A DNA stretch of 64,000 nt from Bacilli bacterium. Its GTDB lineage: Bacteria; Bacillota_I; Bacilli_A; RF39; UBA660. A program made the position numbers and the translations under genes. The notes below the pieces were generated by a model. The model was given only the letters and a program-made list of their open reading frames with translations. It had not been told where the DNA came from and did no database searches. The stretch covers positions 77 through 64,076 of the forward strand of contig JBJEEA010000005.1 in NCBI GenBank assembly GCA_051872635.1, in the 5' to 3' direction. This document shows, one piece after another, positions 3,669 to 28,279 of this stretch (positions are counted from its first letter, which is position 1; each line of letters opens with the position of its first letter).

Positions 3669-3786
3669 TTACATTATCCTTCTTTCAAAAAACATCTATA
3701 TTATATCATAATAAAAATAAATTTTCATATAATTTTCTTGAAAAAATATTTGTAAACTGATACAATGTTAATGGAGGTTATTTACT

Positions 3787-4807: not shown

Positions 4808-4809
4808 TT

Positions 4810-5253
4810 TTATTCATTGATAAAACCATTCTTTTTTAATTTATTAATAACTTTATCTGAAGATACATCTCCCTCAATTCTCGTAGCAGTTGTCTCTTCT
4901 TTACCTTCTTTAAAAAATATAGTAACAGGAGTAGCTCCATCAAAGCTAATATCATCTTTAAATTTATTATACTCATTTTCATCAAAAGTATTAACATCTG
5001 TATAATAAATCTTAACATCATATTCATTAGCGATCTTTTTTAATTTTGGTTTATAGTTTTGACAATGTGTACAGTCTGTTGCCGATACGCAAAGTATAAA
5101 TGTATCGTTATTATTTACTTTTTCCATAACTTCATCATAACTAAGACTTATAAAATTATTTTTATAAAAAAATATGAAATATATAATACATAATATAATA
5201 ATACATATTATAGTGGCCAATAAAATTATTTTTTTACTTATCTTCTTTTTCAT
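4810..5253 (-). CDS. Membrane-anchored thioredoxin-family protein (CTHC active site)
   Basis: Start set at MKKKISKK (RBS GGTGA 5 nt upstream). N-terminal TM. Thioredoxin motif SATDCTHCQNYKPKL. Faces away from the Tad/T4SS locus. Confidence 0.65.
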   Translation of the reverse strand: MKKKISKKIILLATIICIIILCIIYFIFFYKNNFISLSYDEVMEKVNNNDTFILCVSATDCTHCQNYKPKLKKIANEYDVKIYYTDVNTFDENEYNKFKDDISFDGATPVTIFFKEGKEETTATRIEGDVSSDKVINKLKKNGFINE

Positions 5254-5367
5254 TAATATCACCAATATAATGATACCATTTTTTATATAAAATTGCAAAA
5301 ATGACTTTTAATTTATTAAAAAAAATGATATCATTATATATAGAATAGACTAGTGAAAGGAGTACAT

Positions 5368-6054
5368 ATGAAAAATATTAAATATTTAATAATATCTCTA
5401 TTTCTCCTATGTTTAAATTTTACTTATGTAAAAGCTTCTTGCACTAGTGAAGAGTTATCTAGTTTAAAAGAAGAAATCAAAAAAATAAAAATAACCTATA
5501 AGCATTTAGGAGAAATAATTAATGATGATGGAAGTAAATCATATGATAAATTTTTAGTTACTGCTAAAAATATACCAGAAGGCGTTTACGTTCATTTAAG
5601 TCCAATGACAGAAGAAAATTTTGATGAAAGCACCGATGATTTAAAAATAAAATTAACCACAGGTACATGGTACTATAATATGTATTCATCAAAATGTGAA
5701 ACAGTAGTAGATATCATTACTGTAAAATTACCGCGATTTAATATCTATTCCTTAGACCCACTATGCGAAGGTATTGACAGTGATGATTTCCAATTATGTA
5801 GTAAATACTATGAATATGAATTCAGTCGTGAAACATTTGAAAAAAAAGTTAATGCTTATCGAGAAGAAAATAACATAGGTAAAACTGATAATGATAATAA
5901 TGAAGAAACAGAAAACAATAATATTTTAGAAGTAGTACTAGATTTTATAGAAACTTACAATTTATTCATAGTGGGAGGACTAACTATTGTCTTAATAATA
6001 TTAATAGTTATAATAGTAATTTCTAAGAAAAAGAAAAGAAAAATTTTAGAGTAA
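5368..6054 (+). CDS. Exported type-I membrane protein, first gene of the Tad/T4SS locus
   Basis: RBS GAAAGGAG. Signal peptide MKNIKYLIISLFLLCLNFTYVKA. Four Cys in the mature part. C-terminal TM plus KKKKRK stop-transfer. Confidence 0.6.
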   Translation: MKNIKYLIISLFLLCLNFTYVKASCTSEELSSLKEEIKKIKITYKHLGEIINDDGSKSYDKFLVTAKNIPEGVYVHLSPMTEENFDESTDDLKIKLTTGTWYYNMYSSKCETVVDIITVKLPRFNIYSLDPLCEGIDSDDFQLCSKYYEYEFSRETFEKKVNAYREENNIGKTDNDNNEETENNNILEVVLDFIETYNLFIVGGLTIVLIILIVIIVISKKKKRKILE

Positions 6055-6074
6055 TAAAGAAGGAGGAACTAAAT

Positions 6075-7874
6075 ATGAAAAAAGTAAATCAATATAAATA
6101 TATTTTAATTTTATTTATTTCACTTTTCATATTAATTCCTCAAATAAAAGCTGAAACAATAACTACAACGTATAATAATTATTATTTCTTTCTAGAACCA
6201 TATAAAGTATGTTTTGGAAGCGGTGACGATTGTGATACCATTGTAAATGGGACCACTGCAAATTTAAATGGGAGCCAAAATGAAACTGGCTTTATTAGAT
6301 TAATGTTAACTGCATTTGGAGGTAGTTATGAAAGAATAAATTTACTTGACAATAATCCAAATTCAGAGTGGAGCTTTGAAGATTTTTATATAAAACTAAA
6401 AGAAATTGAAGGTACAAATAAGCAAAACTATAGTTTTTCAGGATTATCATGTTCAACAAAATATATCGTAGAAAATAAAAGTGAAACAGAAGTAAATAGT
6501 TACTTTAGTCATGGCTGTTATAGAAGTGTTGGAGAAAATGATTGGAAAAATCAAATTGAAAATTGGAGTTATTCAAATTCAAATATATTAGCATGTGCTA
6601 GTGTAAATATCGATGTTAATGAAGCAGAAAGCAAATTTGAATATAAAAATTTTGATAATTCAAACGCCTATCTTTATAGCAAAATAGTAAGAAATCCAAC
6701 TACAGTAAATAATATTCAGAATGCTGAATTCAATAATAATATAAATTCTAGCAATTGTGAAGGGAAAATATACCCTATTAAAAGTGAAGACGGAAAGTAT
6801 AGAATATTTTCACCAGTATTATATAAATACACTTATACAACCACTTCTGAAGTATGTAAACCTAACTTAACAAAGCCAAATACTGGAAAATGTAATTCTA
6901 GTGAAAACACACTATCTAGTACTTGTGAAAAGGAAACAATAGAAACAAGTAATTCAAGAGCAGATGTCAAAATTGATCAGAATGGTACAGTATCTAATAT
7001 TCTAACACCAGATAGTGTATATCAAGGTGGTGGATTTAAATTTGGTTTTGTCTACTATAATGAAATAAGCTGGGATTTCGCTGGAGATATATATACAACG
7101 CTTGGTAGTACAGATGCTGCAAAAGAAGAAATAACAGCAGCAATGAAGGAAAAAATACAAAATATTGAAGCCTTTAAAGAAAGTATAATATTAGATAATA
7201 TAACCTTTGGAAATGAAACCATAGATAGTAGCCTTATTCAAAAAAGCTGCCAAAGGAGTGGTGAATTTAATCCAGGAGAAACCGTCACTACAATATGTAC
7301 TTTCTATTTACCAAATTCCGTAGTAGAACCTTATACAGGAAAGATAACTTACAGTACATCAATAGGAACAAACTATGGTATAAATAATAAATATTATACT
7401 CCTTTAACCTATGAAGGAAAATATAATCTAAAAGCTACATTAAAAAACTTAAATGTCTTAATAAATGATGAAAACTGGGTTGGGAATTGGAGCCTAACAT
7501 TTGATGGAAGTAAAGACAGTAGTTGCCAAATAGATGTAGTCAAACGTCTTTATGATAAAGTAGATGATAAATCCTATTCATTTGCCTTTATTTATAGGCC
7601 GATAGATTTAAATGACCCATTTCCAAATAGGAATGCAGGAGTAAATTGGTATGTTTGGTACAACCAAACTAGCAATAAAGAAAGACTAAAAGAAAGCTAT
7701 TCAAATTTACAATATCAAGTTAAATTAGATAATAAAAAAACGTATGCTATTAAAAATTATAATAGTAAGAATGATTACTTAAATTGGGACAGTATAGACG
7801 AAAGTGAAGAAAGTTCATTTATTGATGAATATTTCGATATTTATCGAAAGAACATTGAAGGTGATAATCCATGA
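6075..7874 (+). CDS. Secreted Cys-rich 599-aa protein (candidate adhesin or pilus-associated protein)
   Basis: RBS AGGAGG. Signal peptide ending IKAE. About a dozen Cys spread through the sequence. Stop overlaps the next start (ATGA). Confidence 0.6.
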   Translation: MKKVNQYKYILILFISLFILIPQIKAETITTTYNNYYFFLEPYKVCFGSGDDCDTIVNGTTANLNGSQNETGFIRLMLTAFGGSYERINLLDNNPNSEWSFEDFYIKLKEIEGTNKQNYSFSGLSCSTKYIVENKSETEVNSYFSHGCYRSVGENDWKNQIENWSYSNSNILACASVNIDVNEAESKFEYKNFDNSNAYLYSKIVRNPTTVNNIQNAEFNNNINSSNCEGKIYPIKSEDGKYRIFSPVLYKYTYTTTSEVCKPNLTKPNTGKCNSSENTLSSTCEKETIETSNSRADVKIDQNGTVSNILTPDSVYQGGGFKFGFVYYNEISWDFAGDIYTTLGSTDAAKEEITAAMKEKIQNIEAFKESIILDNITFGNETIDSSLIQKSCQRSGEFNPGETVTTICTFYLPNSVVEPYTGKITYSTSIGTNYGINNKYYTPLTYEGKYNLKATLKNLNVLINDENWVGNWSLTFDGSKDSSCQIDVVKRLYDKVDDKSYSFAFIYRPIDLNDPFPNRNAGVNWYVWYNQTSNKERLKESYSNLQYQVKLDNKKTYAIKNYNSKNDYLNWDSIDESEESSFIDEYFDIYRKNIEGDNP

Positions 7875-8803
7875 AATGGTCATTTGCCTCAGTAGGTTTA
7901 ATCGTCTTTGGATTAATAGGTGTAACAATTATCATGTTGTTTGAAGAACTTACAACAACTAATGAAAATGATTACTATTTATTAAAAGAAGTAACTGAAG
8001 CTGCTATGATTGATTCTGTTGATATAAGTTACTACCGTGAAACAGGAGAACTTAAAATAGTTAGAGAAAAATTTGTTGAAAATTTCACAAGAAGATTTGC
8101 TGAATCAACACTTTTAACAGGAAGTGGTTATACTATTAGTTTCTTTGATATTATTGAAACACCACCCAAAGTATCCGTTACTATAAATACAGGGATAGGT
8201 GAATATACAATTTATGAAGATACAAGTAGCTATAATGTCAATAATCGTCTTGATGCTATCTTAGAGTATATAGGTGAAAATACTTATGAGTCCTCTAATA
8301 GTATCAGAGATCCATATACAGAAAAAACCTATAAGAAGACATATTATAATTTAGTAAGAGTTAAAGACAATAGGGCTACTGTTACTGAACCTGTAAATAT
8401 TCCAGAAAAATTAAATCAAGGACATATTAAAAATGTCAAGATTAGGTCTATTTTAGGTGCTACTGTTGTTGAAGAAGAAAAAGATTTAATGCTTGGTATG
8501 CTTCAAAGAGAAATTGATTGGGCTAAAAGTACTGAAGATGATAATCGCACAGATTTTAATCCAGCATCAGCCAGTACAAGTATTAAAAATTATGCTTCGG
8601 AAATTGAGGTTAACATCTCATCTCCAGAGTGGTATAATTGTAGTGACAACTATAAAAGTAAAGAATGGATGAAAGGTACAGAAGTAGATTGTGGAAAATA
8701 TGATTATTTCATTCATTGGACCGGAGATTTAAATAGTAGTAAAAGTTTTATAGCAGTTAAATATGAAGTAACATGGTCATATGAAGAATATGAATATAAA
8801 TAA
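7871..8803 (+). CDS. N-terminally anchored 310-aa protein, possibly a pseudopilin-like or assembly component
   Basis: Translationally coupled (ATGA). Single N-terminal hydrophobic helix SFASVGLIVFGLIGVTIIMLF followed by E-E. No family recognised. Confidence 0.5.
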   Translation: MKWSFASVGLIVFGLIGVTIIMLFEELTTTNENDYYLLKEVTEAAMIDSVDISYYRETGELKIVREKFVENFTRRFAESTLLTGSGYTISFFDIIETPPKVSVTINTGIGEYTIYEDTSSYNVNNRLDAILEYIGENTYESSNSIRDPYTEKTYKKTYYNLVRVKDNRATVTEPVNIPEKLNQGHIKNVKIRSILGATVVEEEKDLMLGMLQREIDWAKSTEDDNRTDFNPASASTSIKNYASEIEVNISSPEWYNCSDNYKSKEWMKGTEVDCGKYDYFIHWTGDLNSSKSFIAVKYEVTWSYEEYEYK

Positions 8804-8816
8804 AAAGGAGGAAAAT

Positions 8817-9665
8817 ATGAATAATTTAAAAGCTTCGATGAAAAAGTTCTTTGGTAACAAAAATACTGTTACCATATTGGGGGTAATATTATGTTTAGTA
8901 ATATTATATATTGGTTATAATTATCGTATCAACAAAGAAGTTGAATTAGTACAAATACCATATGCTAAAGAGACAATTCAGCCAAGAACATATATAACAA
9001 AAGACATGATTGGTACAATGGAAGTGCCTAAAGCGTTCTTAGAGGGAAATTACTATACGAGTGTAAACAGTATTGTTGGTAAGTATTCTAATTATAATAC
9101 TGTTATAGCTAAAGGAAGTATTTTCTATACTGATTTAGTAGTATCAGAGGCAGATCTTCCTGATTCAGCTTTTCAAGATGTACCCGAAGGATATACAGTA
9201 ATTAACTATCCAGTAAATATATCTAGTACTTATGCTAATTCAATGGCTCCAGGTAGCTATATAAATATTTATTATAAGTCACTTAATGATGCTGGTGAAG
9301 TAATGTTTGGCAAATTTATAAGCAATGTCAAAGTATTAGATGTCAAGGATTCTTCAGGAAGACATGTCTTTGAAAATAGTGAAGAGTCTAGAACTCCTGC
9401 TTATATGTTATTTGCTGTCCCAGAAGAGACGCACTTACTTTTAAGAAAAGCATTGTACTTAGATAAATATGATGTTGAATTATTATTAATACCAAATACA
9501 GCAACTTTAAGTGAAAAAGATAAAGTAACCGTAAGCAGTACCCAAATTGAAGAATTTATAAATTCTAAAACCGTATTTGTATCAGTAGATGATTTACCTA
9601 ACATAGAAGATCAAGTAACTGAAGAAGAAAATAATACAAATGAAAATACAAATACCAATCAGTAA
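8817..9665 (+). CDS. CpaB/RcpC-like Flp pilus assembly protein (SAF-domain type)
   Basis: Start at ATG after AAAGGAGG. N-terminal TM, then a SAF-like stretch (ITKDMIGTMEVPKAFLEGNYYTS...IVGKY..TVIAKGSIFYTDLV). Sits immediately upstream of the Tad ATPase. Confidence 0.55.
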   Translation: MNNLKASMKKFFGNKNTVTILGVILCLVILYIGYNYRINKEVELVQIPYAKETIQPRTYITKDMIGTMEVPKAFLEGNYYTSVNSIVGKYSNYNTVIAKGSIFYTDLVVSEADLPDSAFQDVPEGYTVINYPVNISSTYANSMAPGSYINIYYKSLNDAGEVMFGKFISNVKVLDVKDSSGRHVFENSEESRTPAYMLFAVPEETHLLLRKALYLDKYDVELLLIPNTATLSEKDKVTVSSTQIEEFINSKTVFVSVDDLPNIEDQVTEEENNTNENTNTNQ

Positions 9666-11057: not shown

Positions 11058-11960
11058 GTGATAAAATTGGAAATACTTATAATAGGTCTAATAATAATAT
11101 TTATTGTTTCATATAGAACTAAAAGAGGAGAGTCTATATATAAATTTATCTCTACTGAAGCAATAAATACCTATAAAAAAATAGAGCCTTACTCTTTTAA
11201 AGTAATGCGTGAAAAAGTAAAAGAATTAGGCCTTGAATATACTACAAGACAATACTTATTTCAAATAATTGCTTTTGCTGGGTTAGCCGGTGTTATAAGT
11301 TATTTATACTTTTACAATTTATTTATATCTGCTATATACATAATAGTAGCAGTATCATTTATTCCATATATAACCTACCTAAGATGTAAAAGACAGTATA
11401 GTGAATATATCTTCGAACAAGTTCAAGTATACTGTACTAATACCATTATGGAGTTTGCTACTACTCAAGCTTTTGTCAAATCATTAGAGGGAGTAGCAGA
11501 GTCAGGAGTACTAGAAGAACCACTTCTATCAGATGTTAAGACAATGATAGCCTTATCTTATGAAAAAGGCGATGTCTACGACTCTATTAAGTACATGGAT
11601 ACCAAATATCCTTATTATATGGTAAAAAATATGCACCAATTATTTTTACAAGTAACAAAGGAAGGTGCCAAAGATACTAGTGAGACATTTGAAAATATGC
11701 TATCAGATATAGATATTCTAGTAGAAGGTGTATATAGAGATAGAACAGATAGAGCAACCTTCCATAAACAGTTTTTAACTTTTGGTATAGCATTATATGG
11801 AATGGTAGCCTTAATTCAACTACTGATAGGTAAAGAAACTTATATATCTATGATTGATAATATCTTTATTAGAATAATAGTTCATGCTATCGTTATTATA
11901 AATAGTTGGTTTCTCCTTTCTGGAGAAAAATATTACAACGAGAATGTAGGTGCTGAATAA
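11058..11960 (+). CDS. TadB-like platform protein (T2SS-F-like topology)
   Basis: 300 aa. N-terminal TM, TM pair at ~aa 65-105, ~130-aa cytoplasmic domain, C-terminal TMs. Position right after the ATPase. Start could be TTG at 11067. Confidence 0.55.
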   Translation: MIKLEILIIGLIIIFIVSYRTKRGESIYKFISTEAINTYKKIEPYSFKVMREKVKELGLEYTTRQYLFQIIAFAGLAGVISYLYFYNLFISAIYIIVAVSFIPYITYLRCKRQYSEYIFEQVQVYCTNTIMEFATTQAFVKSLEGVAESGVLEEPLLSDVKTMIALSYEKGDVYDSIKYMDTKYPYYMVKNMHQLFLQVTKEGAKDTSETFENMLSDIDILVEGVYRDRTDRATFHKQFLTFGIALYGMVALIQLLIGKETYISMIDNIFIRIIVHAIVIINSWFLLSGEKYYNENVGAE

Positions 11961-12754
11961 TGATTGAAATGTTAATAGTAGCTATCATAGTAATATACAT
12001 TTTTGTTGTAAATGGAAAAATAGATAAAGATAATATTTTTACTAATAACAACAAATTATGTAATTTATTAAAAGAAAAAGATTACGATTTTCTTCTAATA
12101 GCACGATATGGTGATAAAGTTTATAATCCTAATGAAGTATTCATGAAAAGAATAAAAAATGGTATACTAGTAGCAGCAGCGCTTATCTTCTTATTTCTAT
12201 CACAAATGAGCTATATAACTGTAATAGCAGCATTAGTAGTAGGATATTTTGTGTCAAAAATTCAATATATAAGTTTAAAATTATGGTATAAAAGACATCT
12301 TAATTATATTGAATCATTATTACCATATTATTTAAAAAGTTTAGAAGTACTAGTTCATCATTATACAGTACCAGTAGCATTAGCTAAAAGTATCGACGAT
12401 GCTCCTGAAGTATTCAAACCAGGACTAAAAAGATTAATAGACAAAATAGAAGCAGGTGACTCATCAATTGATCCATATATGGATTTTGCTAATGAATATC
12501 CAGTTAGAGATTCAATGCGTATGATGAGATTATTATATAGATTAGGACTTGGAGAACAAGAAAAAAAGCACCAACAGTTAGTTTCCTTCTCTAAGTCAGT
12601 ATCTTCTCTTCAAGCAAAAGCCAGAGAACAAAAATATCAGGCCAGACTTGATACTATGGAGAGAAAGACCATGATTATGATGTGTGTAACCGGATTTGGT
12701 TCACTCGGATTACTATTGATTTCAATATTTATGTTAATGGGAACAGCAATGTAA
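11960..12754 (+). CDS. TadC-like platform protein (T2SS-F-like topology)
   Basis: Start overlaps the previous stop (TAATG). 264 aa with the same TM / cytoplasmic domain / TM layout as the preceding gene. Confidence 0.55.
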   Translation: MIEMLIVAIIVIYIFVVNGKIDKDNIFTNNNKLCNLLKEKDYDFLLIARYGDKVYNPNEVFMKRIKNGILVAAALIFLFLSQMSYITVIAALVVGYFVSKIQYISLKLWYKRHLNYIESLLPYYLKSLEVLVHHYTVPVALAKSIDDAPEVFKPGLKRLIDKIEAGDSSIDPYMDFANEYPVRDSMRMMRLLYRLGLGEQEKKHQQLVSFSKSVSSLQAKAREQKYQARLDTMERKTMIMMCVTGFGSLGLLLISIFMLMGTAM

Positions 12755-12813
12755 ATATTTGAAATATATAAGAAAAGAATAAAAAAAACATATATGAAAG
12801 AAGGTGAGAAATA

Positions 12814-13035
12814 ATGAAAGAAGCAACAGGTGAAGTATCAATGACAGTAATTGTAATCCTTGCAATAGCAGTAATTGGTGGAATAGTAGTAGCACTTGGA
12901 CCGACTCTGAAAGACACAATAATGACAAGATGGGGAAATTCAGATGCAGCAGCATGTAGCTCAGGTGGTGGTACATGGAACGAAACTGATTCTAAAACGG
13001 GCGAAGGATATTGTTCAATGCCAAAAAATAATTAA
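12814..13035 (+). CDS. Flp-like (type IVc) prepilin candidate, 73 aa
   Basis: RBS AAGGTGAG. Short charged leader MKEATG, then a ~25-aa hydrophobic helix VSMTVIVILAIAVIGGIVVALG. Small C-terminal part with 2 Cys. Deviates from the classical G/xxxxEY motif. Confidence 0.45.
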   Translation: MKEATGEVSMTVIVILAIAVIGGIVVALGPTLKDTIMTRWGNSDAAACSSGGGTWNETDSKTGEGYCSMPKNN

Positions 13036-13056
13036 TTAGAGAGTAGGTGATTAATA

Positions 13057-13497
13057 ATGCGAGAAGCCTTTGGTGGAACATTTATGATAAAATTAATGTT
13101 AATCTTTATAGCCATATATATAGCCTTCATAGCGGTAGCTCTAAATTATGCTAAGGCATTTAGAGTAAAGAATGGTATTATTGATATCATTGAGCAAAAT
13201 GAAGGAATAGATGACTATACTGATACTAGTGGTACATTAGGTGAAATAAATGAATATCTAAATAAAGTAAGTTATTATGTATCATTAGATAAAATAGATT
13301 CTTTAAATACAGATGGCAATTATTGTTCTGCAAGAGGCTATTGTATTAAAAGGATAGATGCAACATCGAAAGTAGATAATATTAATAGTTCATATTATAA
13401 AGTAACAACTTATATAAACATTAATTTTCCATTCTTTGGATTAAATTTTAGAATTCCAATAACTGGAGAAACACGTAAAATAGAAAGGATAAGTTAA
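13057..13497 (+). CDS. TadE-like minor (pseudo)pilin candidate
   Basis: Leader MREAFG resembles that of the preceding gene. Followed by the hydrophobic helix FMIKLMLIFIAIYIAFIAVAL and a ~100-aa globular part. Confidence 0.4.
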   Translation: MREAFGGTFMIKLMLIFIAIYIAFIAVALNYAKAFRVKNGIIDIIEQNEGIDDYTDTSGTLGEINEYLNKVSYYVSLDKIDSLNTDGNYCSARGYCIKRIDATSKVDNINSSYYKVTTYININFPFFGLNFRIPITGETRKIERIS

Positions 13498-13498
13498 C

Positions 13499-14521
13499 AT
13501 GGATACTGTAATAGCAAACAAATATAATGACATATTAAGCTCTTTAGATATTGAAGTATCAAAGAAACTAGAAGGAGAGTACGATGTTGAAGAGATAATT
13601 TCAACTTTTGGTAATTACTTTTTCAATAAAATGTTTTTAGATATTACCGCTATTAAAGATTATAAAGATTTTACCAATCTTAAAAAATTATCTATGAGTA
13701 TAAATATGGATAAAGTAATATTACTTTTAGATAAAGATGATGCTATTAGTGATTCTAATGTCTTTTTATCAAAGCTTGTCGATATGGGAATATATAATTT
13801 TACTAAAGATGAAAATAGTCTTATGTATTTATATAATAATCCTAATATTTATCGTGATGTTGCTTATCTTCAAAATAGTACTCCTAGTGAAGAAGAAACT
13901 CCTAATGTAGCACCATTAGAAGTATCTAATAAGAAAATTATTGGAATAAAAAATATAACTGACTCTGCCGGATCCACTACTTTTACTTATTTATTAAAAA
14001 AAGTATTAAGCGATTACTATAGTGTCATGGCTCTTGAAATAGATAAAAGAGAGTTAACTTATTTCAAAGATAAAGACTGTCTTACAATTAAAGAAGATAA
14101 TATTGATGATACTATAAATAAATATAATGGTGTAGATATATTTTTAATAGATTTAGGTAATTCAAAAAAAGAACATTTATGTGATGATGTTATATATTTA
14201 ATTGAACCTAGTACTATTAAATTAAATAAATTAGTCTTAGTAAATCCAGGTATATTTAAAGAATTAGAAGGTAAAAAAGTTATTTTAAATAAGAGTTTAT
14301 TAAGTGAAAATGATATAGCTAACTTTGAAGTAGAATCAGGTATAAGAATATTTTATAATATGCCTCCTATTAACGATAAAGAAGATAAGGATATAAATGA
14401 TAAAATACTTCCTCTATTAGCAAAACTTGGCTATGTAAAAGAGTCTCCAGAAGAAGAAATACCTACCAAAAAATCAATATTTGACTTTTTAAAAAAAATA
14501 AACAATGAAAAAGGCAAATAA
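13499..14521 (+). CDS. TadZ/CpaE-like protein (N-terminal receiver-like region plus degenerate MinD/ParA-like domain)
   Basis: C-terminal half IIGIKNITDSAGSTTFTYLL...ALEIDK...IFLIDLGNS looks like a MinD/ParA fold with a deviant P-loop lacking Lys, as reported for TadZ. Assigned from position and layout only. Confidence 0.35.
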   Translation: MDTVIANKYNDILSSLDIEVSKKLEGEYDVEEIISTFGNYFFNKMFLDITAIKDYKDFTNLKKLSMSINMDKVILLLDKDDAISDSNVFLSKLVDMGIYNFTKDENSLMYLYNNPNIYRDVAYLQNSTPSEEETPNVAPLEVSNKKIIGIKNITDSAGSTTFTYLLKKVLSDYYSVMALEIDKRELTYFKDKDCLTIKEDNIDDTINKYNGVDIFLIDLGNSKKEHLCDDVIYLIEPSTIKLNKLVLVNPGIFKELEGKKVILNKSLLSENDIANFEVESGIRIFYNMPPINDKEDKDINDKILPLLAKLGYVKESPEEEIPTKKSIFDFLKKINNEKGK

Positions 14522-14526
14522 AATAA

Positions 14527-14555
14527 TTGACTTTTGTGAATTTTTAGTGTAATAT
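14527..14555 (+). promoter_or_regulatory. Candidate sigma-A promoter for the VirB2-like gene
   Basis: TTGACT, 17-nt spacer, TAATAT; ~30 nt upstream of the RBS GAGGAGG. Confidence 0.45.
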
Positions 14556-14583
14556 ATAAGTATAATTTGAGGAGGAATAAAAT

Positions 14584-14913
14584 ATGTATTTTTTAGATGG
14601 ATGTCCTGCTGGGTTGGAACCAATTTTAGGAATTGTTAATTATGTTATAAATGCTATTATGATAGGAGTTCCAATATTATTAATAATATTTGGTATGATT
14701 GATATAGGTAAAGCTGTTATTTCAAGTAAAGATGATGAAGTAAAAAAAGCTACTAAAGCATTTGGAAGAAGATTCCTTGCTGCCGTTGGAGTATTCGCAA
14801 TAGTATGGCTTGTAACATTTGTATTTACTACAATAGCATCTGCTACAAATGATGCCGTTAATCCAGATGAAGCAAATTGGCAATCATGTTGGGCACAAAT
14901 AAGAAAATCGTAA
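14584..14913 (+). CDS. VirB2/TrbC-like pilin-type conjugal transfer protein (109 aa, two TM helices)
   Basis: Two hydrophobic helices joined by a charged loop (VPILLIIFGMIDIGKAVISSKDDEVKKATKAFGRRFLAAVGVFAIVW). Same motif recurs at the C-terminus of the 15451 ORF. Confidence 0.5.
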   Translation: MYFLDGCPAGLEPILGIVNYVINAIMIGVPILLIIFGMIDIGKAVISSKDDEVKKATKAFGRRFLAAVGVFAIVWLVTFVFTTIASATNDAVNPDEANWQSCWAQIRKS

Positions 14914-14918
14914 TCTAA

Positions 14919-14953
14919 AAAATTCAGTTAAAAAACATGACTGAATTTTTTTA
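14919..14953 (+). terminator. Rho-independent terminator after the VirB2-like gene
   Basis: AATTCAGT / ACTGAATT stem followed by TTTTTTT. Confidence 0.65.
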
Positions 14954-15350
14954 TAGTAGGATTAGACAAAAATATAAATTAATAAAAAATAATTCTTTTA
15001 TATATTTTGAAGTGTATAAAAGCCAAATCAAAATAGTGGAAGAGTATTTTATTGTGTCTAAGAGGAGTCGGATAAGCATATAGCCTATTAAGTCATGAAA
15101 CAAAAGAAAATTTTTCTATTACAAAATAAACAAAACAATAGTTGAAAAAAATAGTTTGTTAAATACCCCGTTAAATACATTATATAGTAATATAGATATA
15201 TTTTTGAAAGCCTTTTCAAATAAAATAAATAACAAATATAATAGTATTTTAAAATATTTAGAATAAAACAAAAAATTTCTCAAATTATTTTCTAAAATTG
15301 AAGAAAGTAACTTAAGACAAATGAGCAAAACTACCAAAAAAAAATAAAAT

Positions 15351-15392
15351 TGAAAAAGGAATCATTTTTATTCAAAAAATGATTCCTTTTTT
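15351..15392. terminator. Strong hairpin, possibly a bidirectional terminator, with no upstream ORF
   Basis: AAAAGGAATCATTTT / AAAATGATTCCTTTT perfect stem flanked by an A-run and a T-run. Nothing convincing is encoded between 14954 and 15350. Confidence 0.5.
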
Positions 15393-15402
15393 CTTACTAG
15401 TA

Positions 15403-15411
15403 TGTTATAAT
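15403..15411 (+). promoter_or_regulatory. Extended -10 element (TGtTATAAT) upstream of the T4SS module
   Basis: TGTTATAAT read directly, ~40 nt upstream of the ATG at 15451. No good -35. Confidence 0.35.
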
Positions 15412-15450
15412 TTAAATGTGATAGATTAACTTCCAAGGAGTAGATTATAT

Positions 15451-17286
15451 ATGAAAAAAAATAAAAAGCAAATATTATTGACAATTATAGTATTATCAAT
15501 ATCAACAATATTATTTACAAGTAGAGTAGATGCAGTAGTCATGTGGATGCAGTGTGTTCCCAGTCCTGAAGATGAAATGGATTGTGGAGGAGATTGCGAT
15601 GATTATGGATTATATAACACTTTTGCATTGATACATTATGCGAGCGATGGCGTAAGAAATTTGGCATATAATCCAAACAATTTTTATAGTGGCCAATATC
15701 CAGTTTATATTATGGCAGAAAAAACTAATGGTAAACTTGTGGGTAATAGTTGTTGGTATGAAGAATATTTTGATGATATAGAGGAATGTGAAGATGAAAA
15801 AGAAAAAATGGTTCCTATTTCAAAGATGCTTGAAGGTGTTTGCCCAACAGGAGTGAGAAAAAATGATCACTACACTGCTGGTTTTATGAATGCTATTGGA
15901 GCTGGTTGGATATATAAAAAAGTAGTAAAAGATTTTATTGTAGTGTATGGTACTACTCCTGCTTATGAACGCGAAGTTTTAAATGAAAATATTTTTGTTA
16001 TTTATGGTTTTCAAAAAAATAACGAAAAAGCAACTGACTATATAATTGAGGGATATAATTCTTCAGGCGAATATGGTTATGCAACAACATGGGAAGATGA
16101 AGAATCATTTAAGGATAATTTAAATTTGAAAGAAAATGATTCAGATTATGATTTAATAAACGAAGAAGAATATGCTACTAATCATATGACTTGGGCAGGT
16201 ATGACACAAGCACGTAGAGTAGCCAATTTAGGTAGAAATTATTTTAAATTATTGGATACTGAGGACGCTTGGCTGATTAATACACAAGAAGATTCCAAAT
16301 TCGTAAAGAAAGAATATGATGATAATAACAATTTAACAATATATCGCAGTGATGATAGCAATAAGAACTTTTATAGTTGGGTTTCTTCTTGGTATGAAAA
16401 ATATGACGAGGTACTATCTAGCCAAATAAAAATAATAAAAGATTTAAAAGAAAAATCAAAATATGTAAAAGCACTAGAGGTAGCTAAAGAGATAAGTAAT
16501 GCTGTTGATGAAGGAAAAGAATATCGATTTGATGAAGATTATGCTTCTGAAATGGTCCTTGTTATGGAAGAGGCTTATGATTTGTTAGTTCCTATTTTAG
16601 GTGATAATGATCCTATATATGATTCTTATGGAGAAGATTGCAAGGTAACTGGGAAAAAGGTCAATGATCCATCGGCGTCAATACTAACACAGTTTAATTG
16701 TGAAACATTTGGAAAGTCTTCAATAAGTAAACTTCCAAATAAAGTAAATGATGGAATGCTAAATTCAATGATTTCTTCAGCACTAAGTAATGCTGTTAAT
16801 GAGTATAATAATTCTAGTGTTTCAATTGATAAAATACGTAGTACCGCTGAAGAATATGCTAAATATTATGCTATTGCTATTAAATATATTAAAAAATATA
16901 ATTTGGCTACTGGTGATGCAGCAGCGATTATTGATGATCTTACTGACAATTATAATGAAATGACAAGAAGCTTTGGCGTTGAAACAATCGTTAGTTGTGA
17001 TGACTTATTTAGTGATGACCTAAGAAACAAAATAGGTAGTTATCTTAATATAGTTAAAATAGCAGTACCGATAATATTAATTGGTTTTGGAATAATTGAT
17101 TTTACAAAAGCAATTTTTGCCGGAGATGAAGAAAAAATGAAAAAGGCTCAAAAAGATTTTATTATGAGACTAGGAATTGCAATGTTGTTTTTCTTAGTTC
17201 CAACTATAGTAGATCTTTTGCTAAGATTAGCTAATAAGGTTTGGTATTTTATTGAGCCTGGATCTTGTGGTATATTTGATGCATAG
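15451..17286 (+). CDS. Secreted Cys-rich 611-aa protein with a C-terminal VirB2/TrbC-like two-helix domain
   Basis: RBS AAGGAG. Signal peptide ending RVDAV. ~10 Cys. Last ~80 aa (VPIILIGFGIIDFTKAIFAGDEEKMKKAQKDFIMRLGIAMLFFLVP) align with the 109-aa ORF at 14584. Confidence 0.6.
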   Translation: MKKNKKQILLTIIVLSISTILFTSRVDAVVMWMQCVPSPEDEMDCGGDCDDYGLYNTFALIHYASDGVRNLAYNPNNFYSGQYPVYIMAEKTNGKLVGNSCWYEEYFDDIEECEDEKEKMVPISKMLEGVCPTGVRKNDHYTAGFMNAIGAGWIYKKVVKDFIVVYGTTPAYEREVLNENIFVIYGFQKNNEKATDYIIEGYNSSGEYGYATTWEDEESFKDNLNLKENDSDYDLINEEEYATNHMTWAGMTQARRVANLGRNYFKLLDTEDAWLINTQEDSKFVKKEYDDNNNLTIYRSDDSNKNFYSWVSSWYEKYDEVLSSQIKIIKDLKEKSKYVKALEVAKEISNAVDEGKEYRFDEDYASEMVLVMEEAYDLLVPILGDNDPIYDSYGEDCKVTGKKVNDPSASILTQFNCETFGKSSISKLPNKVNDGMLNSMISSALSNAVNEYNNSSVSIDKIRSTAEEYAKYYAIAIKYIKKYNLATGDAAAIIDDLTDNYNEMTRSFGVETIVSCDDLFSDDLRNKIGSYLNIVKIAVPIILIGFGIIDFTKAIFAGDEEKMKKAQKDFIMRLGIAMLFFLVPTIVDLLLRLANKVWYFIEPGSCGIFDA

Positions 17287-17310
17287 AAACTTTAATTAAG
17301 GAGGTATATT

Positions 17311-19410
17311 ATGATTTATTTCTTGTCTTTTTGGTCAGATGTTGGCTTTTCTATAAAACAAGCACTTAGAACTTTTTCTTGTAAAATTGCTTGTGTATTA
17401 TATGATTTTATTGTTGACTTATATAATGTTTTTATGTATACTGCTAGAGCTGAAATATTAAGTAGTAGTTTTGTTCAGCAAATATATAATAAAGTGGGAA
17501 TGCTTTTGGGTATCTTTATGGTTTTTAAATTATCCTTTTCTCTAATACAATCACTAGTTGATCCTAATAAATTTACAGATGAAAAAACTGGCTTTGGTGG
17601 AATTATAAAGAGAAGTGTTATTTCAATAGTACTTTTGGGAATCACGCCTTCACTTTTTCGTATGGCTTTTGATTTTCAAAACTTAATTATTGGTTCGGCA
17701 AATAATACTGATAATATTATTTATAAGATTATTGTTGGCTCAGCACCATATAATGATGCTGCGAGTTTTGGCAACATAATTGCTTCAGAGTTGTATTTTG
17801 GCTTTTATACTGAAAACTCTCCTTATAAATTAGATGAGGGAATCGATATTGAGTATCCTGATGGTGAAGCAAAAATAGTTACTAAAAACTATGCCAATCT
17901 GAAAAGTGAAATAGAAAATGGTGCTTCTTTTAATACCACTATTGATTATCTGTCTGTTACAAATAGTGGGCAGTATGTTATTAATTGGAATGGATTGTTT
18001 GCAATAGCAATGGCTGCTTTCATGATTTACATATTGGTTACATACTGTATACAGGTAGCAACACGTGTAATACAACTAGCTTATTTGCAATTAGTTGCTC
18101 CAGTTCCTATTTTATCATATATTTCAGATCCAGATGGAGCCTTTAAAAATTGGACAAGGCAATGTTTGACTACTTATTTAGATTTATTTATAAGATTAGC
18201 AATAATATACTTTATAATAACAGTTAGTACTCAAATATTACAAGCACTAAAAGATGCAGAAAGCATATTATATCAAAGCACCGGACTTGATCAGTTAAAT
18301 GATGCCGATACAATGTGGTGGGTAGTAATATTTTTAATTATTGGTTTATTAATGTTTGGAAAAAGAGTACCAGATTTATTAAAAGATTTATTCCCTAATA
18401 TGGGTGGTGGTGCCGCTACTATTGGATTTGGAATAAAAAGTCCAAAAAAAACACTTGCAGATATTCCTATAGTAGGAGGTCCTACAAATAAGGCATTAGG
18501 ATATGCAGGAAACCTTGGGAAAAAAGCAGGAAAATTCGCATGGAGCCACACCGGCGGAGCAGCAGGCAAATTTGTTTGGGGCCATACCGGAGGTAAGATT
18601 AAGAATAACTATAACAGATGGAAAGACGATAGAACAGGATATAAAGAAGGATACAAAAAAGATAAAGAATCAGAAGATGCATGGAAAGAATATGGAAATG
18701 ACTTTAATGTTGATCCTTCAGCATCTCCAGAAGAAAAATTGGTTGCATATAAAAAGGCATTTCATAGCAGCCGAGATAAAAATGGTGAATATGCAGCATC
18801 TTATGCACAATTAGAAAGAACTGGTGAGGCTTTGAAAAAATATAGAGGTGACACTAACTCAGCAGAGTATAGAAAACTTCTTGCAGACAAAGAAAAAGCA
18901 CAAAAGAATCATGATGTAAATAGAGAAAAATATAAAGATCTTGCTAGAAGAGAAGATCAACTTAAAAGATATGCTAATAGGCATCCAGAAGTTAAAAAGA
19001 ATACTTCTTCCGCATCAACTACCTCATCATCTTCTTCATCATCACCTTCAGCAACTTCTAATTCTTATCAAAGATCAAATTATAAAGGAACAAATCAACC
19101 AATTAATGAGCAAAACTCTATGTTTGCAAACATGAGTGATGAAGAATGGAAAGCTAGACGTAGTCAAAACGAGCAAGAAATAAGAGAAGAAAACTTAAGA
19201 TTAAGAGAAGCCAATCGAAATGATCCTAATCAATATTTTGATAAAATGGATCAACAGTATGCAGATGAATATTTAAAGAATAATGGTGTATCCGATGATT
19301 TTGATATGCAGTATGAAACCAAAAGAGGCCAAATGGAAGATGCATATAAAAAATTAGGATGGAGTCAAGACAATGATGGAAAATGGACCAAAAATGGCAA
19401 TGGTTCTTAA
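17311..19410 (+). CDS. VirB6/TrbL/TcpH-like polytopic channel protein with a ~325-aa hydrophilic C-terminal extension
   Basis: RBS AAGGAGG. At least 6 predicted TM helices in aa 1-360. Position between pilin-like and VirB3/VirB4 genes. C-terminal half is charged, with a poly-Ser tract. Confidence 0.55.
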   Translation: MIYFLSFWSDVGFSIKQALRTFSCKIACVLYDFIVDLYNVFMYTARAEILSSSFVQQIYNKVGMLLGIFMVFKLSFSLIQSLVDPNKFTDEKTGFGGIIKRSVISIVLLGITPSLFRMAFDFQNLIIGSANNTDNIIYKIIVGSAPYNDAASFGNIIASELYFGFYTENSPYKLDEGIDIEYPDGEAKIVTKNYANLKSEIENGASFNTTIDYLSVTNSGQYVINWNGLFAIAMAAFMIYILVTYCIQVATRVIQLAYLQLVAPVPILSYISDPDGAFKNWTRQCLTTYLDLFIRLAIIYFIITVSTQILQALKDAESILYQSTGLDQLNDADTMWWVVIFLIIGLLMFGKRVPDLLKDLFPNMGGGAATIGFGIKSPKKTLADIPIVGGPTNKALGYAGNLGKKAGKFAWSHTGGAAGKFVWGHTGGKIKNNYNRWKDDRTGYKEGYKKDKESEDAWKEYGNDFNVDPSASPEEKLVAYKKAFHSSRDKNGEYAASYAQLERTGEALKKYRGDTNSAEYRKLLADKEKAQKNHDVNREKYKDLARREDQLKRYANRHPEVKKNTSSASTTSSSSSSSPSATSNSYQRSNYKGTNQPINEQNSMFANMSDEEWKARRSQNEQEIREENLRLREANRNDPNQYFDKMDQQYADEYLKNNGVSDDFDMQYETKRGQMEDAYKKLGWSQDNDGKWTKNGNGS
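18525..18597 (+). repeat. In-frame tandem peptide repeat GKFAWSHTGGAA / GKFVWGHTGGK within the VirB6-like protein
   Basis: Read directly in translation and DNA (aaattcgcatggagccacaccggcgga / aaatttgtttggggccataccggaggt). Confidence 0.8.
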
Positions 19411-19433
19411 TGCTATAAGGAGTGTGATACATA

Positions 19434-19760
19434 GTGAATGGATTTTTAGTACCAGCAAATGCTAAAAGAGGTACTCTTATATTAAATATATTTAGACCAT
19501 TTGATTTAATTATGTTTGGAACAGGAGCACTAGTTACTTTATTATTACTTGTAATTGTTAATTCAAATGATACAGTAATGATATTACTATCCTGTCTTCC
19601 TGTTGCAATAACTGGGTTCCTAGTTGTTCCGGTACCTAACTATCATAATGTTCTATGTGCTATACAAAGTATATTTAAATTTTATTCAGAAAGAAGAAAT
19701 TATATTTGGAAGGGTTGGTGTTTCTATGAAAAATTCGGAAGCGAAGAAGAAAAAAAGTAA
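19434..19760 (+). CDS. VirB3/TcpE/PrgI-like small membrane protein
   Basis: GTG start after AAGGAGTG. 108 aa, two TM helices. Lies immediately upstream of and overlapping VirB4, as in Gram-positive T4SS loci. Confidence 0.45.
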   Translation: MNGFLVPANAKRGTLILNIFRPFDLIMFGTGALVTLLLLVIVNSNDTVMILLSCLPVAITGFLVVPVPNYHNVLCAIQSIFKFYSERRNYIWKGWCFYEKFGSEEEKK

Positions 19761-20289
19761 TTCAAAATATACAGAAGATTGGCTACCAATAAAAGCCATA
19801 TCTAATGGATGTATTCTTTTGGATAATAAAATGAAAGTAACTGGTGTTAAGATAAGACCTAGAAATATTTTTATCTTAGATCAGATAACTCAAGACAATG
19901 TTATTATTGCTCTAAAGAATTTTTACAATACCATTGATTTTGAGTTTTGGCTAATATCTGCAGACCGTCCAGTTGATTTAAATAGTTATTTAGCAAGATT
20001 ACAACTATTATATAATCAAACTCCAAATCCTGCAATTAGGAAACTTATAAATCAAGATATTGATAAAGCCAATAATTTTATGAATAATAATGTTACCGAT
20101 ACAGAGTATTATATATTATTCAAAGAAAAGAATGATGATTTAATCCAAAAAAATCTTCGTACATTAATAACAGGACTTGCTAATTCTGGACTTGAATCTA
20201 CTCAAGTATCAAATGATGATTTAAGAATAATATTAGATAATTTCTTAAATAGTGGAATGACAACTAATTTTGGGACGGTGATTTCGTAA
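19726..20289 (+). CDS. VirB4-family N-terminal domain encoded as a separate 187-aa ORF
   Basis: DWLPIKAISNGCILLDNKMKVTGVKIRPRNIFIL...NFYNTIDFEFWLIS matches the N-terminal region of Gram-positive VirB4 (TcpF/Orf16-like). Start chosen at the internal ATG of the track ORF. Confidence 0.6.
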   Translation: MKNSEAKKKKSNSKYTEDWLPIKAISNGCILLDNKMKVTGVKIRPRNIFILDQITQDNVIIALKNFYNTIDFEFWLISADRPVDLNSYLARLQLLYNQTPNPAIRKLINQDIDKANNFMNNNVTDTEYYILFKEKNDDLIQKNLRTLITGLANSGLESTQVSNDDLRIILDNFLNSGMTTNFGTVIS

Positions 20290-22073
20290 TGAATTTAAAA
20301 AGTGAACTAGCTCCTAAGGGGTTACAATTTAATCCAGCTGATTTTGTTATTAGTGATAGATATGCTACCATTTTAACAGTAATATCATATCCTAGATTTA
20401 TCGGAGCTGGATACCTGGCTAATTTAACTAATATGTCTGGTGTAAAATTAGTAATTAAACATATTCCTCTTCCGTTTTCAGTACTTGCTAAAATGTTAAA
20501 TAAAGAAATAGCCGACTTAAAAAGTAAATATCAACAAGAAAGAGATAGAACTATTCAAGAAAGAATTAGGCAAGATGTAGATTCATTAGAGTACTTTATT
20601 CAGCAGTTTACTGCTTCCCAAGCTAAAACTTTTGATTTTCAAATGCATATTATGGTAACTGCTGATACTAAAGAAGAACTTGAAATGAAGAAAGTTAATC
20701 TTAAGAACTATTTAGATGCTATGGAACTTAGAGCTATACCATTAAGGTTTGAACAAGAAAGAGTTCTAAAATCGATTCTTCCTATTTTTGATAAGCAACC
20801 AATTGAAAGTAGAATAGGTACTCCTATGCCTTCTCCTACTATGGCAGCAATGTATCCATTTATTTTTGATAGTATTAAAGATGATGGCTTATCAACATTA
20901 CTTGGCGTTGATTTTTCTGGTGGTGTAGTATTATTTAATCAATTCTTATATCAGTTAAAGAAAGAAAGCAATAGAAACAATGCTAATATGATTATTTTAG
21001 GTACATCTGGTAGTGGTAAATCCACAGCAGCTAAACTAATATTAAGAAGTCATATTCGAAATGGTTATCAAATAGTAGCAGTTGATCCCGAAGGCGAAAT
21101 AAGTGAAATGACAAGAATGTATGGAGGAGATGTCATAGATCTTGGTAAAGGTGGAGAATATGGTATGGTAAATCCACTTGAAGTAGTAATGGATGCTGAT
21201 GAAAATGAAATTAAAAATGGACTAGGATATACTGTATTAAATAAAACATTGCAGTCATTAAAAGCATTTATGAAATATTATTCACCTGATATTGAAGAGG
21301 ATGTTCTTGCACTATTTAGTGAAGTAGTCCAAGATACATATGCCAGGTTTGGAATAACATTTACTTCAGATTTTTCAAAATTCACTTCAAATGATTATCC
21401 AACTTTTGGAGATGTATATATAACAGTAACTAGTAAGTTAACATCTATGACAGTAAAAACACATGAAAGAGATGTTATGGAAAGACTAGAATTAAAACTA
21501 AGACCATTAGTTAGAGAACTTAAATATTATTTTAATGGTCATACTTCAATTAATACAGAAAGTGATTTCCTCGTGTTCAATATAAAAGAACTTATGAATT
21601 CAGATGTAAATATAAGAAATGCTTTATTATTTAATGTTCTTAAGTTTGCTTGGGGATTATGCTTAAACCCCAATGTTAATACTGTTCTATCAGTTGATGA
21701 AGCACATGTTTTACTTGGCGCAAAAAATGAATTAGGTGCTGAATTTTTAGCCCAAGTTCAAAGAAGAGCAAGAAAATATAACACAGGTACAATAATAATT
21801 ACTCAACAGCCATCAGACTTTGTCGCAGATGGAATATTAATGCATGGTAAAGCCATATTTGATAACTCTTCATATTATTTAGTTATGGGATTAAAGAAAC
21901 AATCTGTAGAAGATTTATCAATGTTAATAGACTTAAACGATAATGAGAAAGAAGGAATAAAAAGATTTAGTCAAGGTGAAGCATTATTTGTATGTGGAAA
22001 TAGAAGAATGCAAATTAATGTAGTTGTAACTGAAGATGAATTAGAGTCATTTGGCTCAGGTGGTGGATTATAG
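20289..22073 (+). CDS. virB4: VirB4-family T4SS ATPase (middle and ATPase domains, 594 aa)
   Basis: ISDRYATILTVISYPRF, Walker A GTSGSGKST, Walker B LSVDEAH, IIITQQPSD. ATG overlaps the previous stop (TAATG) and has its own GGTGA RBS. Confidence 0.85.
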   Translation: MNLKSELAPKGLQFNPADFVISDRYATILTVISYPRFIGAGYLANLTNMSGVKLVIKHIPLPFSVLAKMLNKEIADLKSKYQQERDRTIQERIRQDVDSLEYFIQQFTASQAKTFDFQMHIMVTADTKEELEMKKVNLKNYLDAMELRAIPLRFEQERVLKSILPIFDKQPIESRIGTPMPSPTMAAMYPFIFDSIKDDGLSTLLGVDFSGGVVLFNQFLYQLKKESNRNNANMIILGTSGSGKSTAAKLILRSHIRNGYQIVAVDPEGEISEMTRMYGGDVIDLGKGGEYGMVNPLEVVMDADENEIKNGLGYTVLNKTLQSLKAFMKYYSPDIEEDVLALFSEVVQDTYARFGITFTSDFSKFTSNDYPTFGDVYITVTSKLTSMTVKTHERDVMERLELKLRPLVRELKYYFNGHTSINTESDFLVFNIKELMNSDVNIRNALLFNVLKFAWGLCLNPNVNTVLSVDEAHVLLGAKNELGAEFLAQVQRRARKYNTGTIIITQQPSDFVADGILMHGKAIFDNSSYYLVMGLKKQSVEDLSMLIDLNDNEKEGIKRFSQGEALFVCGNRRMQINVVVTEDELESFGSGGGL

Positions 22074-28195: not shown

Positions 28196-28279
28196 CTGTC
28201 TAGCATTTTGTAAATAGATAGTTTTTTTCTTTACATCTAAAGCCTTTTCATATATAATATGATTATAAAAGGTGATAAC

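Follow-up and report, generated by a model that had tools for sequence, protein, structure and literature searches.

A stretch of 64,000 nucleotides from the genome of a gut Bacilli bacterium (contig JBJEEA010000005.1; hereafter the window) encodes, within a type IV secretion system (T4SS) locus, a 611-residue protein in which a large cysteine-rich ectodomain is fused at its C-terminal end to a two-helix, pilin-like hairpin module. The module is a true paralogue of a stand-alone 109-residue protein encoded upstream, and the mature fusion protein is exchanged between closely related strains together with the VirB6-like protein encoded next to it. The reading we favor, with moderate confidence, is that the 611-residue protein is a modular minor or tip pilin of the VirB2 type, docked on VirB6 and presenting a variable recognition domain; the assembly step in this reading is inferred. 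Because the outer domain and VirB6 are swapped between near-identical strains, the protein is probably the contact-making part of the chromosomal T4SS.

The kinship between the C-terminus of the fusion protein and the 109-residue protein, proposed in a first-pass annotation from shared positions in the two sequences, is confirmed by BLASTP run with composition-based statistics. A gap-free alignment pairs residues 532-591 of the fusion protein with residues 22-81 of the 109-residue protein (22/60 identical, or 37%; 36/60 positives; 43.5 bits; E = 2e-10), which far exceeds what hydrophobic composition bias yields. The shared unit is longer than the 53 residues marked in the first pass and covers about 95 residues in the order cysteine, helix, basic loop, helix, cysteine. 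The first cysteine lies about 22 residues ahead of the ‘VPI’ motif of helix 1 (C516 in the fusion protein and C7 in the 109-residue protein), the second lies beyond helix 2 (C606 and C101, respectively), and the loops of both proteins carry the motif E-x-x-(M/V)-KKA-x-K-x-F-x-x-R. Among 129 representatives with pairwise identities of no more than 50%, 128 retain the cysteine pair, with one cysteine placed 12-32 residues ahead of the helix-1 proline and the other past helix 2. We infer that a disulfide between the two cysteines holds the hairpin together on the outer side. The 109-residue protein carries no signal peptide and has more than 190 homologues in which both cysteines are conserved, and its gene is preceded by a strong GGAGG ribosome-binding site.

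The fusion protein begins with a Sec-type N-terminus, in which a hydrophobic core at residues 8-26 is followed by VDA-VV. It contains ten cysteines (residues 35, 45, 49, 101, 113, 131, 397, 417, 516 and 606), eight of which are invariant in an alignment of 32 homologues, and its ectodomain is acidic, with 85 aspartate and glutamate residues against 48 lysine and arginine residues in positions 28-510. The signal peptide, the approximate number of cysteines and the acidic patches reported from the first reading are therefore all present. A full-length AlphaFold2 (AF2) model built on the 32 homologues has a mean predicted local distance difference test score (pLDDT) of 80.5 and a predicted template modeling score (pTM) of 0.74. 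The model divides into the signal peptide (1-27), a beta-rich head (28-212), a seven-helix bundle (248-507) and a helix-turn-helix (522-601), and the helical part of the ectodomain has pLDDT values mostly of 85-95. Only the last ~95-100 residues of the mature protein, which is ~584 residues long, correspond to a pilin.

Within the module, hydrophobic segments at residues 531-549 and 576-594 flank a loop with five lysine or arginine residues, and the isolated module is likewise modeled by AF2 as a helical hairpin. These sequence features and the model predict a topology in which both termini face outward. Given that the N-terminal domain is exported, helix 1 would cross from outside to inside, which would place the basic loop in the cytoplasm and return the short C-terminal tail to the outside. 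The protein terminates in ...EPGSCGIFDA and has no LPXTG sortase signal.

Structure and profile searches give no assignment for the ectodomain. Foldseek with the full-length AF2 model returns zero matches at E <= 0.001 in PDB and BFVD; a match to an enzyme family unrelated to secretion, which would have spoken against such a role, is thus not seen there, and assignment of the ectodomain to a fold of enzymes, lectins, VirB5 or phage receptor-binding proteins is not possible. A profile of the family alignment searched against PDB sequences yields only noise, and a Pfam scan of the protein and its homologues finds no adhesin domain.

The assignment of the fusion gene to a T4SS follows from its fixed slot, with the small pilin-like gene on one side and the VirB6-like gene on the other. 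The latter begins 24 nucleotides past the stop codon of the fusion gene and encodes a protein with about six transmembrane (TM) segments. Genes downstream of the fusion encode, in order, the VirB6-like protein (699 residues), a VirB3/TcpE-like protein (108 residues), the N-terminal and C-terminal parts of VirB4 (VirB4N and VirB4C, the latter of 594 residues), an M23 peptidase plus lysozyme-type hydrolase, a 298-residue protein and a VirD4 coupling protein. The order small hairpin protein, fusion, VirB6, VirB3, VirB4N and VirB4C is repeated in metagenome loci L006, L008, L009 and L010; the conserved order also occurs in L029-L033, and locus L011 contains the fusion-VirB6 pair. In about 20 genera, the best module match is on the strand of VirB4C, 2.6-3.7 kb upstream of it.

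The division of VirB4 (window positions 19726-22073) into a TraC-like N-terminal gene of ~185-187 residues (a 221-residue frame in the list of open reading frames, ORFs) and the 594-residue ATPase, which overlap at TAATG, is kept in every related locus examined (L006, L008, L009, L010 and L029-L033). Of the 151 genomes sampled in the order, which range from 0.6 to 1.6 Mb, 142 contain a VirB4C frame of ~600 residues, covering 81 of 86 genera, so the split is a fixed feature and not a frameshift error. A few second, more divergent matches aside, VirB4C is 63-95% identical across the order.

Tad-pilus genes lie upstream of the T4SS genes in the window, and a link between the fusion protein and the Tad pilus was considered and rejected. 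Loci L006 and L008 have no Tad genes and retain the order of small pilin, fusion and VirB6, which places the fusion with the T4SS. In L006, the region upstream of the small pilin (903-9136) encodes an EssC-like double FtsK/SpoIIIE ATPase that bears an FHA domain, together with a WXG100-like protein and a number of small ORFs, and resembles a type VII secretion module beside the T4SS.

Between strains, the mature fusion protein is exchanged in a single cassette with VirB6. Across 14 related loci, evolutionary rates differ sharply, the identity to the window being highest for VirB4C (82-96%) and lowest for the ectodomain (24-77%, or undetectable). Metagenome contig L033, a strain-level relative, is 99.3% identical to the window over positions 14342-15555, 27-87% identical from 15556 to ~19420 and 99.5% identical over 19422-20283. 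The left breakpoint falls at codon 35/36 of the fusion gene, directly past the signal peptide and the VMWMQC motif (the signal peptide to codon 35 is 100% identical in L033), and the right breakpoint coincides with the VirB6 stop. The beta-rich head is the most variable part of the ectodomain, being 38% identical to the L033 allele. Within the VirB6 gene, a 150-base-pair (bp) island at 18062-18211 is 99% identical to L033 amid surroundings of 68-87%, and represents a minor, secondary patch of recombination. In two congeners whose VirB4C is 95% identical, the same slot is taken by a 464-residue or a 404-residue protein; only the last 92-96 residues of these proteins align (40-48% identity), and their VirB6 is 35% identical. 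The first-pass description of the ectodomain as an exposed surface domain gains support from these comparisons, as a domain that is hypervariable and swapped between strains behaves like a recognition surface.

Joint exchange of this kind also bears on the idea that the fusion protein is a self/non-self or entry-exclusion determinant, in which the variable ectodomain and the VirB6 allele form a cognate pair that chooses which neighboring cells are engaged. Such a pair would resemble the TraG/TraS and TraG/Eex alleles known from F-like plasmids and from SXT/R391 elements. Near-identical strains exchange the two genes jointly, the divergence of one follows that of the other independently of VirB4, and discrete ectodomain classes fill the same slot, all of which such a determinant could produce. 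The most variable part of VirB6, however, is the tail of ~340 residues after its last TM helix (residues 357-699; 18381-19410), which is free of cysteines, lysine-rich and probably cytoplasmic. Between strains, this tail (residues 381-699) is only 10-29% identical and is more variable than the fusion ectodomain, and its probable cytoplasmic location means that surface exposure does not explain its variability. Exclusion proteins are, moreover, normally small and act on the recipient side, and no conjugative relaxase is found in this genome, which leaves exclusion of entering DNA without an obvious purpose. We regard this explanation as quite improbable.

Fusions of this type were thought unusual at first sight, which the wider search overturns: they abound in metagenomic data and are nearly universal across the order. 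Among 1.84 billion representative proteins, a profile of the module matches 9,546 protein clusters at E <= 0.001, of which 4,582 reach E <= 1e-10, and the module occurs in 144 of the 151 sampled genomes. Among the best 150 module matches, most of the proteins of 236-710 residues bear the module at the extreme C-terminus, and nearly all of those that are full-length have a signal peptide and many cysteines. A ‘long’ class of ~45 clusters shares the ectodomain of the 611-residue protein and has VMWMQC or MYLEC after the signal peptide. Members of a ‘short’ class (~250-450 residues) have ELTCxY in this position and an ectodomain with no detectable similarity to that of the long class. The genome that contains the window encodes three further module proteins, fused to SGNH/GDSL-like, C39-like peptidase and CHAP amidase domains, whose genes adjoin topA, an AbgT-like transporter gene and uvrB. 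Two of the three are each followed by a paralogous lipoprotein of ~216 residues with a C-terminal TM helix, which may represent a conserved two-gene cassette.

Whether the hairpin is a T4SS pilin was examined by family, fold and context. Two TM helices, a short charged loop and both ends outside are the predicted topology of the module, as in VirB2 and TrbC, and the gene is encoded beside virB6, virB3 and virB4. PF18895 (T4SS_pilin) is the sole Pfam family matched, with 29 of 32 homologues at E <= 0.05 and a best E of 4.7e-6, and the fusion protein is the best match to this family in its genome. The NCBIfam model NF045849 (‘pilin-like conjugal transfer protein’) matches six of 33 module sequences at E <= 0.05, with scores of 15.3 bits for the 611-residue protein and 18.3 bits for the 109-residue protein, both below its 40-bit cut-off. 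At ~584 residues, the mature fusion protein lies outside the ~50-150 residues of mature small pilins. A VirB3-like identity for the hairpin was also considered. VirB3 has cytoplasmic termini, and this candidate was rejected on the grounds that a separate VirB3-like gene precedes VirB4 and that the signal peptide and outer cysteine pair place both ends outside. The VirB2-like identity named in the first-pass annotation thus stands as to predicted topology and T4SS locus, both of which are solid, whereas membership in the VirB2/T4SS_pilin family, reached through sub-threshold matches, is suggestive and not demonstrated.

Several observations weigh against the modular pilin. The PF18895 scores of the fusion protein (20.4 bits by hmmscan and 24.4 bits in the genome search) fall below the cut-off of 26.6, and of 14 control genomes, 11 also give weak matches (E <= 1) to this family. 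The fusion protein is not matched by PF04956 (TrbC), hhalign of PrgF from pCF10 against the module alignment gives a probability of 0.3%, and the module profile searched against PDB sequences finds SecY noise and no solved pilin. Foldseek with the hairpin model places no T4SS pilin in the top 50, returning generic hairpins (ESCRT-III, ATP synthase c and HtrII) at E ~1 or worse, although the fold is too simple to discriminate. The association of module divergence with VirB6 divergence (Spearman 0.87, against 0.19 with VirB4 divergence) counts in favor of the modular pilin but is descriptive and not a statistical test, the loci being related and the points not independent. The gene for the 109-residue protein lies outside the swapped cassette and is 99% identical in L033 while VirB6 changes, so this protein either tolerates different VirB6 alleles or is not the main partner of VirB6. 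No pilus has been seen so far in this lineage. Finally, the hairpin also anchors cell-wall hydrolases elsewhere in the genome, and may be a general anchor or docking tag and not a polymerizing unit.

Taken to its end, the last of these points would make the module a generic two-helix anchor of the lineage, and the 611-residue protein an ordinary surface protein, adhesin or enzyme that merely lies beside T4SS genes. The use of the module on CHAP, C39-like and SGNH domains beside housekeeping genes and the sub-threshold Pfam match agree with such an anchor. It is nevertheless very improbable, as the slot between the pilin-like gene and VirB6 is invariant across the loci examined and ~20 genera, the gene is swapped together with VirB6, and the loop motif and cysteine pair are conserved well beyond the needs of a simple anchor. 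In a congener, even the hydrolase fusion, there with the C39-like domain, sits inside the T4SS locus.

For a modular minor or tip pilin, a mechanism can be proposed that follows published models of VirB5 and VirB2 in Gram-negative systems, of PrgF on PrgH in pCF10 (bioRxiv 10.64898/2025.12.18.695078) and of modular minor pilins (PMC9934059). The Sec signal peptide would export the acidic, disulfide-rich ectodomain of ~480 residues, composed of the beta-rich head and a helical stalk, and the C-terminal VirB2-type hairpin would retain the protein in the membrane with both ends outward and the lysine-rich loop in the cytoplasm. A C516-C606 disulfide would clasp the hairpin in place of the head-to-tail cyclization of Agrobacterium and RP4 pilins. 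The hairpin would dock on the VirB6-like platform encoded directly downstream, with whose gene its alleles are exchanged. Because each subunit carries a 55-kDa domain, the fusion protein would form a low-copy first layer, and the abundant 109-residue paralogue would polymerize underneath and push it outward. As the first layer, the fusion protein would display its variable ectodomain at the far end of a short conduit that spans the cell wall, where it could recognize or bind a target cell or surface. The contact mediated by this machine is probably not that of classical plasmid conjugation, given a chromosomal location, no relaxase found in this genome and a VirB4 in 142 of the 151 genomes.

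Polymerization is the step at which this mechanism parts from a static one. The fusion protein could instead be a membrane-anchored part of the T4SS envelope, such as a pentameric cap, stalk or wall-spanning collar on VirB6, with the hairpin as a docking anchor and no pilin polymer. We consider this possible but doubtful. Monoderm T4SSs have no VirB7, VirB9 or VirB10, and the wall still has to be crossed by something. A conduit could be built from the long helical domain, the hairpin is also found as an anchor on enzymes with no need to polymerize, and the fixed slot by VirB6 and the joint exchange of both genes are as a collar would have them. A structural collar is not, however, expected to be the fastest-evolving component or to be replaced within a genus by an unrelated shorter ectodomain, and the small paralogue, which is highly conserved and has expression signals of its own, points to a pair of major and minor subunits.

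The positions of the features discussed are collected in the table below.

Table. Features of the fusion protein, its locus and related genes, with the basis for each. Identities to the window are ranges over 14 related loci. Positions are those of the window unless a locus is named.
Feature	Position	Strand	Basis	Identity to window
Fusion gene, 611 residues	15451-17286	+	ORF list and translation	
Signal peptide, residues 1-27, MKKNKKQILLTIIVLSISTILFTSRVDA; invariant VMWMQC motif directly after	15451..15531	+	Translation, alignment, hydropathy	
Ectodomain (whole)				24-77%, or undetectable
Ectodomain, beta-rich head, residues 28-212; invariant C35, C101, C113, C131	15532..16086	+	AF2 model, alignment	
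Ectodomain, helical part, residues 248-510; seven long helices; invariant C397, C417	16192..16980	+	AF2 model	
C-terminal pilin-like module, residues 511-611: C516, helix 1 (~528-552), basic loop (553-572), helix 2 (~573-600), C606	16981..17283	+	BLASTP, AF2	40-92%
Hypervariable cassette: mature fusion and whole VirB6-like gene	15556..19420	+	blastn, MAFFT against metagenome contig L033	
Stand-alone pilin-like hairpin protein, 109 residues, candidate major subunit; C7 and C101 flank two helices	14584..14913	+	ORF, BLASTP paralogy	32-99%
Terminator-like hairpin, 17-bp stem, in otherwise ORF-free gap 5' of fusion gene	15353..15391			
VirB6/TrbL-like polytopic membrane protein, 699 residues, putative docking platform	17311..19410	+	PF19597 TrbL_4, NF045848/NF045889 matches	31-79% (TM part)
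VirB3-like				60-98%
VirB4N				72-100%
VirB4C				82-96%
Membrane-anchored DUF6568/PedC-like protein, just upstream of cluster	3787-4305	+		
Membrane-anchored thioredoxin, CTHC motif, just upstream of cluster	4810-5298	-		
Three module fusions in own genome (contigs C42, C3, C22)	L002 775-2040, L004 1420-2373, L005 703-1749	-, +, -		

The small pilin and fusion genes are separated by an ORF-free gap (14954-15450, ~500 bp) that is 99-100% identical in L033, and an Rfam scan of this 500-bp gap finds nothing significant. The sequence of the hairpin within it looks like a terminator that would separate the small pilin gene from the T4SS operon. In L010, the same gap holds a gene for a metallo-beta-lactamase-fold protein (3114-3884) that matches the Pfam family for the anti-Pycsar protein Apyc1.

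The combined Tad and T4SS cluster (5353-26883) sits amid housekeeping genes, with flanks at 3069-5298 (queH, spoU and thioredoxin) and 27446-43006 (yunB, sufB, amidase, ssb, a class II tRNA synthetase of the Asp/Asn/Lys type, pyruvate:ferredoxin oxidoreductase and recA). L008 has the same upstream flank, and L006 has yunB downstream. The cluster looks like a core chromosomal T4SS and not a mobile element. A tblastn search of the 611-residue protein against 72,556 PLSDB plasmids gives no match, so the family is not a known plasmid gene. Relaxases of the families PF03432, PF03389, PF02486 and PF01076 are not found in this genome, which is 90.7% complete, so their absence is not proven. The DUF6568/PedC-like protein and the CTHC thioredoxin, a pair that is also upstream of the distant locus L008, are candidate extracytoplasmic disulfide-forming enzymes for the cysteine-rich exported proteins of the locus.

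Elsewhere, the same genome holds a second T4SS fragment of a more conventional kind (L036 2448-4504; contig C14, ~11950-14000). It encodes a 114-residue hairpin protein (PF18895, 22 bits) that has no cysteine pair, a 461-residue polytopic VirB6-like protein and a 100-residue VirB3-like protein. The genome also holds a second VirB4 match, and the fragment may be an integrated conjugative element.

These results touch the question of how Gram-positive T4SSs reach and recognize a partner cell through a thick wall. VirB2-like pilins were long called absent from these systems and were proposed only in a December 2025 preprint (bioRxiv 10.64898/2025.12.18.695078). A full-text literature search finds no description of a pilin hairpin fused to a large ectodomain, nor of this T4SS in RF39-type Bacilli, and such fusions are absent from both the work on Patescibacteria pilin arrays (PMC12102498, PMC12857230) and the survey of Gram-positive plasmids. 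A hairpin that covalently bears a large domain is a concrete candidate for the recognition element, because the domain is hypervariable and swapped together with VirB6 and its gene keeps a fixed slot by VirB6. The swapped cassette also predicts which parts would be in contact, namely the hairpin and VirB6, and which part would face outward.

The order is prevalent in the gut, uncultured and auxotrophic, and a T4SS may explain how its members interact with other cells. A broader and rather unlikely extension of the modular-pilin reading is that the order as a whole carries a core chromosomal T4SS, in which target recognition is performed by a cassette-swappable modular pilin and VirB6, as a Firmicute counterpart of the T4SS of Patescibacteria. 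If this were true, the way of life of these gut bacteria would be contact-dependent exchange with other cells or parasitism of them, and the ectodomain would set partner specificity. In metagenomes, the variable ectodomains could also be used to tell strains apart.

Of the two closest published systems, one is formed by the small VirB2-like proteins of Gram-positive plasmids, among them PrgF of pCF10. PrgF is essential, and AlphaFold models place its pilus on a VirB6 pentamer, the lumen being lined by the charged loop (ter Beek et al., bioRxiv 10.64898/2025.12.18.695078). The fusion protein resembles PrgF in its two-helix hairpin with a charged loop, in the closeness of its gene to a VirB6-like gene and in the proposed assembly on a VirB6 pentamer. 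The two have no detectable sequence similarity, and PrgF-type systems are plasmid-borne and serve conjugation with relaxases. The accompanying survey of Gram-positive plasmids screened only proteins of 50-150 residues (bioRxiv 10.64898/2025.12.18.695078), which places fusions such as the 611-residue protein outside its search.

The first-pass annotation had likened the role of the fusion protein to that of VirB5 or PrgB, and neither likeness extends to homology or fold. The proposed role is indeed that of VirB5/TraC, as a minor subunit that sits on VirB6 before pilus growth, reaches the tip and makes contact, and both proteins are partly helical. VirB5 is soluble, however, and has no pilin hairpin, and no similarity of the fusion protein to VirB5/TraC is found by Foldseek against PDB (E <= 0.001) or by the PDB profile search. 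PrgB is an LPXTG-anchored adhesin, whereas the fusion protein has neither this signal nor a Pfam adhesin domain.

The design of the fusion recalls PilB and PilC of Streptococcus sanguinis type IV pili, in which an adhesion module is carried on a pilin moiety and its bulk fits only at the filament tip (PMC9934059). In both cases, a functional module is grafted onto a pilin, which is an analogy of design only. PilB and PilC belong to an unrelated filament superfamily, begin with a class III signal peptide where the fusion protein has a Sec-type signal, have as pilin part one alpha-1 helix at the N-terminus where that of the fusion protein is C-terminal, and carry the module at the C-terminal end, unlike the N-terminal ectodomain here.

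In gene order, the locus matches a Mycoplasma integrative and conjugative element (ICE) that encodes Mbov_0395 (CDS15, ‘pilin-like’), Mbov_0396 (VirB6-like) and Mbov_0397 (VirB4). The best NCBIfam matches in the window are NF045849 (module, weak), NF045889 (VirB6) and NF045975 (VirB4, E 2e-105), all of them below their cut-offs. The Mycoplasma pilin-like protein has ~80 residues and no ectodomain, and the elements that encode it are mobile ICEs.

The chromosomal T4SS of Patescibacteria, also known as the candidate phyla radiation (CPR), is the other of the two closest published systems. Arrays of VirB2-like pilins have been detected there with PF18895 (Quinonero-Coronel et al. 2025, PMC12102498; FEMS review PMC12857230), the clusters mostly have no relaxase, and the system is reported to be essential for epibiotic growth (PMC12102498, PMC12857230). 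Both systems match the same Pfam family (weakly here), are chromosomal and of the monoderm mating pair formation type FATA (MPF-FATA), have no relaxase nearby, place several divergent pilin paralogues beside VirB6, VirB3 and VirB4, and occur in hosts with small genomes. The system described here differs in its gut Bacilli host, in the cysteine pair that brackets the hairpin and in a VirB4 that is split into two genes. Above all, the Patescibacteria arrays are described as small pilins, whereas one of the paralogues here bears an ectodomain of ~480 residues.

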